Source of the DNA: Capsulimonadales bacterium
Lineage (GTDB): Bacteria > Armatimonadota > Armatimonadia > Armatimonadales > Armatimonadaceae
Assembly (NCBI GenBank): GCA_033762295.1
Contig: JANRLW010000069.1
Coordinates: 1 to 64,000 of the forward strand
Direction of reading: 5' to 3'
Length of the DNA stretch: 64,000 bases
Both the position numbers and the translations under genes were made by a program. This document shows positions 46,649 through 50,617 of this stretch, piece after piece (position 1 is the stretch's first letter; the number at the start of each line of letters is the position of its first letter). The notes beneath the pieces were generated by a model. It searched no databases, was not told the origin of the DNA, and saw only the letters and a list, made by a program, of their open reading frames with translations.

Positions 46649-48241
46649 ATGCCTTCGGAACCACACCCGAAAAAGAGAACGCCGGCAGCTTACTGGTCTC
46701 CCGCCCGGTCGATCGCGCTCGGGGTCGCCGGTCTCGCGTTGATCAGTGCGGGAATCGTCAGTCTGGTCCAGCGGCGAACCCGTGACAAATATCTGGAGGA
46801 GCAGCAGCGTCGACGCGAACAGGAGGTCATCGCTCTGGTGAACGCGGAACGGTTCCGTCTGGCGTCCGAAGCGGTCAACGGACTGATTTACGACTGGGAC
46901 CCGGAGACCGGCGCGGTGCTGCGGACACGCGGTCTGACCGAACTGCTCGGATATCTGGGCCGGGAGGATCAGGATACGATGGCCTGGTGGCGGGAACAGA
47001 TTCATCCGGAGGATCGGGAGCGTGTGGCCGCCGCGTTCGAAGCGGTCCGGGATCATCATCGTCCCTCGTTTGAGATCGAATACCGCGTTCGCCACAAATC
47101 GGGGCAATATGTCCGCCTTCAGGACCGGGGCGTGATTCTGCGCGATGCCGGCGGAAAAGCCGTCCGCGTCGTCGGTTGCAGTATCGATGTCACCGCCCGG
47201 TATGAAGCCGAAAGGGCGCTTCGCTACAGCGAGGAGCGTCTGCGTCTGGCGGTCACCGGCGCGGACCTCGGCACATGGCACTGGAACCTGCGAACCGATC
47301 GCTTCGAACTGTCGGATCGTTGTCGGCGACACTTTGGCATCGCCCCGGAGGAGGAGGTGGATTCGGAACGGTTCTTTCGCGCCGCTCCCTCCGACGATCG
47401 GGAATGGGTCCGCGCGGCCGCGTTGCTGGCGATCGAGCAGGGGCAGGATTTCGACGTGGAACATCGTGTGGTGCTGCCGGACGGATCGTTTCGGTGGCTG
47501 GCCGTTCGTGGACGCGCCCATGCCGATGAAGCCTCGGTACCGATGAGCATGGAGGGGATCGCTCTGGACGTGACGGAACGCCATCTGGCGCTCTCGGAGA
47601 TCGAAAAGCTCAACGTCCGCCTGCAGCGAGCGATGGCGGAAAGCCACCACCGGATCAAGAACAACCTGCAAACGCTGGCCGCCCTGGCCGAAATGCAATC
47701 GTTCCACCAGGACAATACGGTTCCCCGCGAGGCGTTCGAGCGGCTCTGTCAGCATATCCGGACTCTGGCCTCCCTTCATGACCTGTTGACGCTGGAAATC
47801 CGGGAGTTCCGGGAGGTGGAAACCGTGTCGGTTCGGAATGCGCTGAACCGTCTGACCGATCTGCTCTCGTCCGTGACCGGGAATCGAACCGTGCTCGTCG
47901 ACAGTGAAGAGGCGCGTCTGCCATTGAAACAGGCCGGTTCCTTCTCCCTGCTGGTGAACGAACTGGTTTCCAACGCGGTGAAGCATGGCGCGGGGGATAT
48001 TCGAATTCGTCTTCGAACGACGGCGGATCGGATCAACGGACAGCGTCCGACCGCCCTGCTCGAGGTGACCGATGAAGGGGCGGGTTTCCCCCCCGGTTTC
48101 GACCCGCGAGTGGCGGCGAATACCGGGCTGGAACTGGTGGAGAGTATCGGCTGCTGGGACCTGCAGGGCGCGGTCGCCTACGAAAATGCGCCCGGCGGCG
48201 GCGCGATGGTCCGGGTATCGTTCCCGCTTCAACCGGTCTGA
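46649..48241 (+). CDS. TM-PAS-PAS-HisKA_2 sensor histidine kinase (PdtaS/EutW class)
   Basis: N-terminal TM, IHPEDR PAS, ESHHRIKNNLQ H-box, NELVSNAVKHG, DEGAGF, TGLELV. Confidence 0.93.
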   Translation: MPSEPHPKKRTPAAYWSPARSIALGVAGLALISAGIVSLVQRRTRDKYLEEQQRRREQEVIALVNAERFRLASEAVNGLIYDWDPETGAVLRTRGLTELLGYLGREDQDTMAWWREQIHPEDRERVAAAFEAVRDHHRPSFEIEYRVRHKSGQYVRLQDRGVILRDAGGKAVRVVGCSIDVTARYEAERALRYSEERLRLAVTGADLGTWHWNLRTDRFELSDRCRRHFGIAPEEEVDSERFFRAAPSDDREWVRAAALLAIEQGQDFDVEHRVVLPDGSFRWLAVRGRAHADEASVPMSMEGIALDVTERHLALSEIEKLNVRLQRAMAESHHRIKNNLQTLAALAEMQSFHQDNTVPREAFERLCQHIRTLASLHDLLTLEIREFREVETVSVRNALNRLTDLLSSVTGNRTVLVDSEEARLPLKQAGSFSLLVNELVSNAVKHGAGDIRIRLRTTADRINGQRPTALLEVTDEGAGFPPGFDPRVAANTGLELVESIGCWDLQGAVAYENAPGGGAMVRVSFPLQPV

Positions 48242-48250
48242 GGCGGTCCG

Positions 48251-48312
48251 AAACGAGAAGGGGCATCCTCCGGTGAGGATACCCCTTCTCGTTTGTGTGT
48301 TTCTTTCTCTTT
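48251..48312. terminator. terminator between convergent kinase and sigma genes
   Basis: AAACGAGAAGGGGCATCCTC-CGGT-GAGGATACCCCTTCTCGTTT plus T-rich tail. Confidence 0.8.
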
Positions 48313-48333
48313 TCGCGTTGCCGGATCGCGTCG

Positions 48334-49002
48334 TCAGGCGACAAACGCCGTGCGATGCGCCTGAAGTTTCCGCAGAAGCGCCTGGCGGGCGCGGTTCAGC
48401 CGGGACTTGACCGTCCCGATCGGCACCTGTGTCATCTCCGAAATCTCCTCGTAGCTGCGCTCTTCCAGATAGAACTGGGAGAGAATTTCCGCATGCAGCC
48501 CCGGCAGTTTGGCCAGCGCTCTATGCAGGATGTCGCGCTGTTCCTGCTCACCGACCAGGGTCAGCGGCGATTTTTCCTTGCTGTCGATAAACGGCAGGGA
48601 GGAGGCGTCCGTGTTTTCGGTCAGCGCCTCGAGGGATACGGCCGGGCACTTTTTCGCGCTTCGGCACATATCGTAAAACGTATTCACCACGATCCGGTTC
48701 ACCCAGGCGGGAAGGGTCACTGCCGACTTGCACTTGTTGATGTTCTGGCACACGCGAAGGATCGCGGCGGCGGCCACATCACTGGCATCGTCGTAGTTCC
48801 CGGCCAACCGGTACGCCAGGGCGTAGATCGGTCGCTTGAACCGGGCGATCAGCGCGTCCATTGCGCCTTTGTCGCCCTTCTGGCACCAGGCAACGATCTC
48901 GGCGTCGCTCATACGCTCGTAGGAGCGGAATCGCGGGCGTGCCGAATCGCCATTCATGGAGGTCGTATTCTGTCCGATATTCGAGGTGGTCAGCGTTTGC
49001 AT
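48334..49002 (-). CDS. ECF sigma-70 factor
   Basis: Region 2 (IYALAYRL..DDASD..WVNRIVVN), region 4 (SYEEISE..PIGTVKSRLNRAR); AAGGA RBS. Confidence 0.95.
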   Translation of the reverse strand: MQTLTTSNIGQNTTSMNGDSARPRFRSYERMSDAEIVAWCQKGDKGAMDALIARFKRPIYALAYRLAGNYDDASDVAAAAILRVCQNINKCKSAVTLPAWVNRIVVNTFYDMCRSAKKCPAVSLEALTENTDASSLPFIDSKEKSPLTLVGEQEQRDILHRALAKLPGLHAEILSQFYLEERSYEEISEMTQVPIGTVKSRLNRARQALLRKLQAHRTAFVA

Positions 49003-49218
49003 CGTCTTTATCCTTCTAAAGGGAGGATTCCGCCGAACGGTCCCTTCGGATGCCCATTAATCGGCATTCCGTGGACACTGCGGAAAAAGGAGTCAGACTA
49101 CCTGGCCTGAAAGGGATTGCATGACGGACAGGGCCATACAAATCGAGCGGTCTCCGGTCGCCGTCCCCGGCTATTCCGGGAAACCATATATGTAATCCGC
49201 TACGGTAGCGCCGCAGCC

Positions 49219-49280
49219 AAAAACAAAAAACGCCTGAACTGCAACGAAAGGGGCAACGAGCCCCAATTGCAACTCAGACG
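49219..49280 (-). terminator. intrinsic terminator (attenuator) upstream of the ECF gene
   Basis: RNA CGUCUGAGUUGCAA pairs with UUGCAGUUCAGGCG (14 bp including GU), inner GGGGC/GCCCC stem, then UUUUUUGUUUUU. Confidence 0.85.
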
Positions 49281-49324
49281 ATCCTGGCCTGATGTACTCT
49301 GTCGGACGATCCTGGCCCGACAGA
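49274..49324 (-). promoter_or_regulatory. tandem dual-hairpin RNA element, ANTAR-target-like
   Basis: P1 UCUGUCGGGC-CAGGAUC-GUCCGACAGA, 5-nt linker, P2 UCAGGC-CAGGAUC-GUCUGA; P2 3' arm lies within the terminator 5' arm. Confidence 0.75.
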
Positions 49325-49373
49325 AGATATGTAGTTTTCAAAGATGCGGCGCGTTGAGCGTGCTGTTATAAGT

Positions 49374-49399
49374 GACGTGACCCGCGAAAGTTTTGTTCC
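49374..49399 (-). promoter_or_regulatory. ECF-type promoter
   Basis: Minus strand GGAAC-N17-CGTC directly upstream of the structured leader. Confidence 0.6.
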
Positions 49400-49672
49400 C
49401 GAAAGAGATCGACATTTTTCGTGTTCTTGTGAAATGAATCCATCCGTGTCAGTCGGCCCCGGGCGGGACACCCTGCCCGAGGCCATTGGGTGCGTACGGT
49501 CGGCGAGGACGGTGATTGCCCCGCATAAAAGGTCGTTGCCTTCCCGCATCGGGTTCCGTCCTCCGACGTCCGGGCGCAAGTTCCCTTCCGGAACCCCGGG
49601 TATTCGTTCGGGTCGATGGAACTGGTATACTAATGATCATTCGAAAATCGAAACGATGTGCAAGAGGGATGT

Positions 49673-50266
49673 ATGAGTGAAACGACTCCCCGTCTCAAGG
49701 CGTTGATCTGCGAGGATGAAGGCATGACCGTCATTCTGTTGCAGCGCGCTTTGCAGGCTGCCGGTTATGAAGTCGTGGGAAAAGCCGTGGAGGGCGCACA
49801 GGCGGTGGAACTGGCACGCTCGACGCAACCCGATTTCATTCTGATGGATATCAATATGCCGGGGATGAACGGGATCGAATCCACGCGGTTGATTACCGCC
49901 GAACGATCCGTTCCGATTATCATGCTTACGGCCTATAGCGAGGATAAGCGGGTGGATGAGGCGATCGACGCCGGCGCTTGCGCTTACCTGGTAAAGCCGA
50001 TCACCAGTACCCAGTTGATTCCGTCCTTACGTACGGCTCTTGCCCGTTTCGAGGCGCTGAACGATATCCGTAAGGAAAATCAGGATTTAAAGGACCAACT
50101 GGAGACGCGAAAACTCGTCGAACGCGCCAAAGGCATCCTGCAGCAGCGGACCGGCCTGACGGAGGCGGACGCTTTCAAGCGGATTCAAAAGGTCAGCCGG
50201 GACAAATGCCAACCGATGCGCCAGACCGCCCACGAGATTATTGAAGCGGATTCGTTGTTTTCCTAG
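49673..50266 (+). CDS. REC-ANTAR response regulator (PdtaR/EutV class)
   Basis: ICEDE, LMDINMP, LTAY, LVKP, coiled coil, RKLVERAKGIL..EADAF ANTAR; extended -10 TGGTATACT at 49623-49631. Confidence 0.97.
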   Translation: MSETTPRLKALICEDEGMTVILLQRALQAAGYEVVGKAVEGAQAVELARSTQPDFILMDINMPGMNGIESTRLITAERSVPIIMLTAYSEDKRVDEAIDAGACAYLVKPITSTQLIPSLRTALARFEALNDIRKENQDLKDQLETRKLVERAKGILQQRTGLTEADAFKRIQKVSRDKCQPMRQTAHEIIEADSLFS

Positions 50267-50374
50267 GTCGCTCCGGCTATCCTCGGGGTTTTGGCTGTGC
50301 TATAATCACGACAGTCCGCCCGCCGACGGAGTCAAGATGCCTGGCGAGAAGCGGACATCATCCCGGAGGAAACG

Positions 50375-50617
50375 ATGCCCTACATCATTACCGAGCCGTG
50401 CATCGGTGTCAAAGACAAGAGCTGTGTCGCTGTCTGCCCCGTTGACTGCATCCACGGCGGCGACGACGATAACCAGCTGTTCATTGATCCCAGCGAATGC
50501 ATCGACTGCGGTCTCTGTGAGCCGGAATGCCCGGTGGATGCCATCTTCATGGAAGATGAAGTCCCGGACAAGTGGAAAACCTATATCCAGCTCAACGCCG
50601 ATTACTACAAAAAGTAA
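50375..50617 (+). CDS. 7Fe-type ferredoxin ([3Fe-4S]/[4Fe-4S])
   Basis: C-x7-C-x3-CPVDC and CIDCGLCEPECP; GGAGG RBS; extended -10 TGCTATAAT at 50298-50306. Confidence 0.95.
   Translation: MPYIITEPCIGVKDKSCVAVCPVDCIHGGDDDNQLFIDPSECIDCGLCEPECPVDAIFMEDEVPDKWKTYIQLNADYYKK

Follow-up and report, generated by a model that had tools for sequence, protein, structure and literature searches.

In a Capsulimonadales bacterium, the leader in front of a gene for a stress-type sigma factor of the ECF kind carries two tandem hairpins with seven-nucleotide loops, the second of which competes with an intrinsic terminator, and we estimate at roughly three chances in four that this leader is controlled by regulator-dependent ANTAR-type antitermination. 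In this model, we infer the binding, the control by phosphorylation, the direction of regulation and the promoter. The data support the description of the element as an ANTAR-like antiterminator with a non-canonical C1/G4 heptaloop, to which the regulator is predicted to bind. A preliminary description of the window (the whole stretch of 64,000 nucleotides that was analysed) had already pointed to ANTAR geometry and a 7-nt C1/G4 loop; that proposal is supported by an adjacent REC-ANTAR gene, a recurrent regulator-leader-sigma linkage, covariation of the stems, invariance of the loops and a changed contact patch in the regulator.

Twin hairpins and a competing terminator

The window holds two exact copies of the 13-nt sequence GACGATCCTGGCC, located on the forward strand at 49277-49289 and 49305-49317, the two sites pointed out before. 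Nine further sites in the window match it with one or two mismatches (4.66 expected), and there is no other exact copy. On the minus strand, each copy forms a hairpin in what we call module A: P1 (49297..49325) has an 11-bp stem and the heptaloop CAGGAUC at 49314-49308, and P2 (49274..49292), the proposed antiterminator arm, has a 6-bp stem and the same heptaloop at 49286-49280. The six pairs of P2 stand as first described, while P1 has 11 pairs counting G-U instead of the 10 bp given before, and the maximal stems are 4 nt apart instead of 5. The irregularities of the stems are G-U pairs on the minus strand, as read directly from the sequence and the fold.

The twin hairpins and the terminator reported earlier are real, and P2 and the terminator are mutually exclusive. 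The terminator hairpin (49231..49280, minus strand, -28.1 kcal/mol alone) includes in its 5' arm all six nucleotides of the P2 3' arm, as had been proposed, and runs directly into the U-tract UUUUUUGUUUUU (U6GU5) at 49219..49230 on the same strand. The unconstrained fold of 141 nt contains P1 and the terminator without P2 (-52.9 kcal/mol, z -3.66). When both conformers were folded, as the preliminary description advised, the forced P1+P2 conformer reached -57.0 kcal/mol versus -65.5 kcal/mol for the terminator conformer, a cost of 8.5 kcal/mol, so that a stabilising factor would be needed to favour P2. The twin hairpin in its strong form occurs once in the 5.16-Mb source genome, where the covariance-model match for module A has a genome-wide E value of 4e-11.

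Gene neighbourhood

The element lies 217 nt upstream of the proposed regulated gene, a sigma-70 family gene of the ECF type (48334..49002, minus strand) encoding 222 amino acids with the Pfam domains Sigma70_r2 and r4_2. The protein scores 81 bits against the ECF superfamily model TIGR02937 of NCBIfam (cut-off 42.9), with no equivalog model reached, and contains regions 2 and 4 only, in keeping with ECF membership. The proposed antiterminator is a REC-ANTAR response regulator (49658..50266, plus strand; Pfam Response_reg 1.3e-27 and ANTAR 1.1e-19, both above cut-off) of a clade that we designate A, whose gene is divergent from the leader and the sigma gene. Its closest solved relatives are Rv1626/PdtaR (1.5e-46) and EutV (2.7e-32), and it is one of three ANTAR proteins encoded in the source genome.

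The proposed partner is a PAS-PAS-HisKA_2-HATPase sensor kinase (46649..48241, plus strand), which is convergent with the sigma gene. The end of the kinase gene and the stop codon of the sigma gene are 93 nt apart, leaving no room for a co-transcribed anti-sigma gene. HisKA_2 kinases convergent with the sigma gene are also found at three related loci (L097, L071 and L108). In the relatives L068-L072 and L097 the regulator precedes the leader and has the same orientation, and in the window the regulator gene alone is inverted, with the convergence of kinase and sigma genes kept, which points to a local inversion in the window. Elsewhere in the source genome, a 206-aa frame (contig C85, 60428-60802, minus strand) has a receiver domain 64% identical to that of the window regulator over residues 12-136 only. 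The frame is closely paralogous to the regulator in its receiver, and its output domain is either different or absent.

Distribution and covariation of the element

Comparison of the 655-bp intergenic DNA with 40 relatives returned no homologue besides the source genome itself, and its one weak match was a 33-base stretch in G004 (E 0.005). A search of genome contigs for related loci with the sigma protein gave a single unrelated match (25% identity). Five genomes of the same family (G006 with two loci, G009, G016, G017 and G010) together provide six loci at which an ANTAR regulator (60-64% identity) is encoded directly upstream of a sigma homologue. At the five loci of G006, G009, G016 and G017, the spacer between the regulator and the sigma gene contains, in this order, a promoter-like site, a small hairpin, P1, a linker of 6-7 nt, P2, a terminator, a U-tract and a Shine-Dalgarno sequence, with the P1 loop reading CAUGAYY and the P2 loop CAGGAUY or CAAGAUU. 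In these relatives the 5' arm of the terminator is composed of the 5' arm, loop and 3' arm of P2. The pairing register of the terminator differs between the window and its family, yet the overlap with P2 is kept in both, which indicates that the conserved property is the competition and not the sequence. An extra conserved hairpin (GAUCNGG...CCNGAUC) is present about 40-75 nt upstream of P1 at L068-L071 and L097 and is not evident in the window. The G010 spacer, inspected by eye, shows a diverged twin hairpin with a terminator, a P1 loop of 8 nt and the P2 loop CAUGUCC; this copy was misaligned by MAFFT and found by no model, and is left out of all counts.

Covariance models R1-R3, built on the window and family sequences, identified two more loci of the family (in G378 and G403) and eleven copies in nine genomes from a second order of the same phylum. 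The model scan for further copies that had been suggested thus brought the total to 20 copies in 16 genomes, distributed over two orders of one phylum. Eight weak model matches (L114, L116, L124, L139, L157, L158, L160 and L205) are probable false positives and stand outside the 20.

In MAFFT alignments all cells of the stems were paired, both for six copies (90/90, with four compensatory pairs) and for nine copies (135/135, with five). The model-guided alignment of the 20 copies had 285 of 296 cells paired and compensatory changes at seven pairs, with 47 double-sided changes versus 16.3 +/- 2.8 in shuffles and a covariation score of 0.542 versus 0.238, reached by none of 500 shuffles; because the model itself shaped this alignment and many of the copies are closely related, these counts overstate independence. 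Slid registers of the same copies paired 30-47% of cells. Compensatory changes affect six of the nine P1 pairs, and P2 shows mainly G-C/G-U and C-G/U-G variation, with full double-sided compensation at one of its six pairs. The stem covariation across the 20 copies upholds the earlier suggestion of RNA-level selection on the minus strand.

Two pattern searches gave no usable copies. The exact pattern CAGGATC-N14-34-CAGGATC matched in 265 of 401 genomes of the phylum, mostly in coding-like sequence, and was uninformative. A loop-anchored pattern scan of metagenomes yielded 40 stretches, none of which exceeded 24.4 bits against R2; those inspected had the appearance of coding sequence or tandem repeats, and the stretches were treated as chance matches. 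Two metagenome contigs (L131:1312-1353 and L145:1500-1541) contain at least three tandem copies of the 18-nt unit GGGCCAGGAUCGUCCGUC, the first 15 nt of which equal the top of the window P1 (stem top and CAGGAUC loop). These arrays may be coding repeats or hairpin arrays.

Conserved features of loops and terminators

The dimensions of the element are maintained in all 20 copies, with a P1 of 9-11 bp, a P2 of 5-6 bp and a linker of 4-8 nt. Loop 1 has 7 nt in every copy, and loop 2 in 18 of 20, with 6 nt in one copy and 8 nt in another. C1 is present in both loops of all copies. By alignment, G4 is found in 20/20 copies of loop 1 and 19/20 of loop 2, and the one exception, the 8-nt loop 2, likewise has G as its fourth base. 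Directly beneath the loop, three P1 pairs (G-C, G-U and C-G, giving the stem top GGC/GUC) are invariant among the 20 copies. Other loop positions vary, as in CAUGAUC, CCUGCAU, CAAGAAU and CAGGAGC, so the identical CAGGAUC loops of the window are a special case of C-N-N-G-N-N-N.

This variation bears on the alternative raised in the preliminary description, that the loops are CsrA/RsmA sites whose GGA binds CsrA and that the terminated RNA is a CsrA decoy or a CsrA-controlled attenuator. Both window loops read CAGGAUC, which we take to resemble the CsrA consensus; with its GGA in a hairpin loop, the window's own copy is like CsrA/RsmA hairpins and RsmY/RsmZ-type decoys. GGA is also found in loop 2 of 12 of the 20 copies, and the Shine-Dalgarno sequence of the sigma gene is GAAGGA. 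In loop 1, however, which typically reads CAUGAYY or CCUGNNN, GGA occurs in two of 20 copies, and both loops carry it in two of 20. A search for PF02599 found no match in the 94.5%-complete source genome and matched three control genomes; among five element-bearing relatives searched, csrA is absent in G006, G009, G016 and G017 and present in G378. In contrast to CsrA hairpins and decoys, the element is linked in cis to a terminator and a sigma gene. With csrA missing and GGA not conserved, the CsrA reading is rejected, and we give it next to no weight.

The source genome, in which CsrA was not found, holds two short tandem arrays with GUCAGGAG(A/G)G and GUGCAAGGNNU units, on contigs C83 (5160-5196, minus strand) and C32 (660-699, plus strand). 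They are rich in GGA/AGG and look like multi-site protein-binding RNAs.

The loops also allow a protein-independent switch to be considered, in which either a kissing interaction (CNNG of loop 1 with CNNG of loop 2) or a small ligand determines whether P2 or the terminator forms. C1 of each loop could pair with G4 of the other, and all four pairs are possible in five of 20 copies. The central pair is CG in five copies, AU in two and UG in one. But 12 of 20 copies, among them every member of the window's own family, cannot form the central pair, the next pair fails in six, and the two outer pairs are invariant and hence uninformative. Such a switch would also leave the strict co-occurrence with one ANTAR clade unexplained, and an Rfam scan of positions 48000-50500 at E<=10, riboswitches included, returned no match. 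We regard a protein-independent switch as very unlikely.

In 17 of 20 copies, P2 overlaps a terminator (-21.6 to -47.6 kcal/mol) that leads straight into a U-rich tail and uses four to six of the six nucleotides of the P2 3' arm. The three copies without one are a second module in the window (module B, described below), L162 and L159. These three copies, together with a module B region that folds no better than shuffles (z -0.78), are what might be expected of an ordinary terminator or small RNA that lacks a switch and has hairpins upstream merely by chance. That explanation is hard to reconcile with the covariation, the invariant loop positions, the conserved location directly upstream of one sigma family and the spread over two orders, or with a P2/terminator overlap that is kept despite differing terminator sequence and register, and we consider it highly improbable.

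A sigma-factor homologue (33-52% identity) is encoded downstream of 17 of the 20 copies, namely the window's two modules, seven others of the family and eight of the eleven second-order copies. Downstream of L162 is the clade-A ANTAR regulator itself, downstream of L166 (G340:C125:9242-9295, plus strand) a Transgly_assoc-family protein, and downstream of L159 (G086:C50:91364-91414, minus strand) a class A penicillin-binding protein. The latter two targets hint that the regulon touches the cell envelope.

Regulator clade and contact residues

In the EutV-RNA structure, according to the accessible part of PMC8934654, the flipped G4 makes the only base-specific contact and is held by R142, E160 and Y164, and binding is abolished by M172A and by the N173A/R175A/R177A triple mutation. 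Residues were mapped by a phmmer alignment to EutV chain 6wsh_A, which is ungapped over the ANTAR domain. The three residues of the G pocket correspond to R151, E169 and F173 of the window regulator, which are the same in all ANTAR clades examined, and M172, N173 and R175 correspond to R181, D182 and C184. Thus, the protein has the receiver, the C-terminal ANTAR domain and the G-binding residues of a REC-ANTAR regulator, and the M172/N173/R175 patch of EutV is replaced. The clade-A patch reads (S/A)-R-D-(K/R)-(C/S) in 20 of 20 sequences examined (nine sigma-linked family regulators and eleven from the second order and G403). The widespread clade B has S-M-N-T-R-K, that is an EutV-like M-N-x-R, and a third ANTAR clade has A-R-N-x-N-K-K. 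Judged from these sequences, the changed contact patch and the changed loop specificity may be linked, a relation that is one of correlation.

Clade A follows the element across genomes. Genome-wide tests of ten element-bearing genomes found a clade-A regulator (59-69% identity) in every one, and among the 40 relatives a regulator of at least 58% identity is encoded only in the five leader-bearing genomes. The other 35 have neither a clade-A regulator (best matches <=47%) nor a match to the leader models. A REC-ANTAR regulator is adjacent to the element or within about 3 kb of it in the window, G006 (two loci), G009, G016, G017 and G378, and further in G403, G010, G189, G426, G074 and G305. 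Separate contigs carry the regulator and the element in several genomes of the second order, so that linkage there is seen at the genome level only.

It could be that another RNA-binding protein or another ANTAR paralogue binds the hairpins and that the regulator is linked to them for another reason. The genome encodes three ANTAR proteins, the clade-A regulator and the element are not neighbours in some genomes, and of five control genomes, four of which lack clade A, G275 has a clade-A regulator and no detected element. Clade B, however, was found in all 41 genomes searched (the 40 relatives and the source), including the 35 without the element, and so does not track it, whereas clade A does in all ten tested genomes and is adjacent to it in the window's family. 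Binding by another protein is therefore unlikely, and the clade-A regulator is the preferred candidate.

A second twin hairpin in the same leader

Model R1, built without this copy, detected a second, weaker twin hairpin (module B) at 49090..49144 on the minus strand (36.1 bits, E 6e-5), which is absent from the preliminary description and lies past the terminator but ahead of the start codon of the sigma gene. It consists of P1' (49141-49117, loop CCUGUCC) and P2' (49110-49093, loop CAGGUA), and no U-tract terminator overlapping or following it was found. P1' resembles the P1 of family relatives. P2' is near-identical to the P2 of module A, with one indel and one substitution, which suggests that module B may have arisen by partial tandem duplication.

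The Shine-Dalgarno sequence GAAGGA of the sigma gene (49011..49016, minus strand) pairs in the minimum-energy fold with UCCUUU just 3' of P2'. In this fold (49150-48985) a long-range helix replaces P2', the bases of which pair around the AUG. Given the z value of the region, the pairing of the Shine-Dalgarno sequence with UCCUUU is treated as hypothetical. It is possible, though doubtful, that module B gates translation and is opened by the regulator of module A, as this predicted fold would allow.

Promoter candidates and proposed mechanism

The motif GGAAC-N17-CGT, which we take to be a common ECF promoter shape, is found at 49375..49399 on the minus strand, 73 nt upstream of P1. It is present 73-124 nt upstream of nine of the 20 elements versus 139 of 6188 background 200-nt windows. 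If this motif is an ECF promoter, the sigma gene would be self-activating and the leader would gate that loop. A housekeeping-type, promoter-like site of the form TTGAC/T-N17-nATAnT is located at -84 to -85 in five of seven copies from other genomes of the family, and a sigma-70 promoter scan of positions 48900-49750 in the window gave no site.

We propose that transcription would begin some 40 nt before P1, at a predicted start near 49367 and probably under an ECF-type promoter, and that by default the nascent RNA would fold into P1 and the terminator, so that RNA polymerase would stop at the U-tract. The PAS/HisKA_2 kinase would phosphorylate the neighbouring REC-ANTAR regulator, a dimer of which would sit on the two heptaloops, so that each loop is met by one ANTAR domain, which grips its invariant G4. 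Binding of the dimer would lock P2, and the locked P2 would withhold GUCUGA from the terminator, giving read-through into the sigma gene. The recognition code would be a 7-nt C1/G4 loop with the invariant GGC/GUC stem top, as opposed to a 6-nt A1/G4 loop, and this altered loop code would match a clade with an R-D-x-S/C patch instead of M-N-x-R.

A wider reading, which combines these elements, is tentative and falls a little short of being probable. It would comprise an orthogonal second ANTAR code, in which GGC/GUC stems with 7-nt C1/G4 loops would be the targets of the R-D-x-S/C clade, and the co-resident M-N-x-R clade would recognise others, the paralogues thereby being insulated. It would also comprise a cascade from kinase to RNA-binding regulator to ECF sigma factor, in which a self-activating sigma gene is gated by a terminator in place of an anti-sigma factor. 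Two gates in series would then be present in the window, module A acting on transcription and module B on translation.

Discussion

Some ECF sigma factors are under two-component control instead of anti-sigma control, with a response regulator that binds DNA and activates the sigma promoter. The locus described here is similar in having a kinase and a response regulator alongside the sigma gene and no co-transcribed anti-sigma gene. In contrast to those systems, its predicted output is RNA binding, and the proposed control point is the leader terminator. The PdtaS/PdtaR pair (Rv3220c/Rv1626) provides the closest solved relative of the regulator, together with a kinase of the partner type with PAS and HisKA_2 domains. 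Rv1626 reads D-R-R where clade A reads D-K-C/S, with R at the position where EutV and clade B have it.

As given in the accessible text of PMC3369931 and PMC8164766, ANTAR targets are two tandem stem-loops of at least 3 bp, with a linker of 5-12 nt in the eut RNAs and of 2-25 nt in later surveys, and in EutV targets the closing pairs and the linker length matter (PMC3369931). Compared with the EutV/eutP, NasR/nasF and AmiR/amiE targets as described in the available part of that paper (Ramesh et al. 2012, PMC3369931), the present element has the same tandem hairpins, short linker and G4, as well as conserved closing pairs, exclusivity of P2 and terminator, and an ANTAR gene beside the target. 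It differs from them, again as far as that part goes, in having loops of 7 nt instead of 6 and C1 (20/20) instead of A1 (PMC3369931), and further in the invariant G-U of its GGC/GUC stem top and in its association with an ECF-type sigma factor, not with nitrogen or ethanolamine genes. As the loops are neither hexaloops nor begin with A1, the element is not filed as a member of the defined ANTAR motif, and neither Rfam nor a published model recovers it. Actinobacterial ANTAR RNAs, in the portion of PMC8164766 available, have A1/G4 hexaloops and are mostly without terminators, in contrast to the terminator found in 17 of 20 copies here, and some of them act on translation, as module B might. Neither a heptaloop ANTAR target nor an ANTAR-gated ECF sigma factor was found in the part of the literature that was searched, which lay outside subscription journals and supplements, and the accessible part of a 2025 review (PMC12591593) mentions neither.

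Some published covariance searches require hexaloops, as in the part of the methods of PMC8164766 that is accessible. Such searches would miss a heptaloop class, which makes an undercount of the ANTAR regulons in this phylum probable. Regulators with ANTAR domains are widespread, often with several encoded in one genome, and to our knowledge the A1/G4 hexaloop is the only ANTAR RNA recognition motif defined. A loop geometry and a protein contact patch that match each other and are conserved across two orders provide a hypothesis for ANTAR specificity that can be addressed by mutation. ANTAR antitermination tied to an ECF-type sigma factor would add a post-initiation route to the gating of ECF sigma factors.
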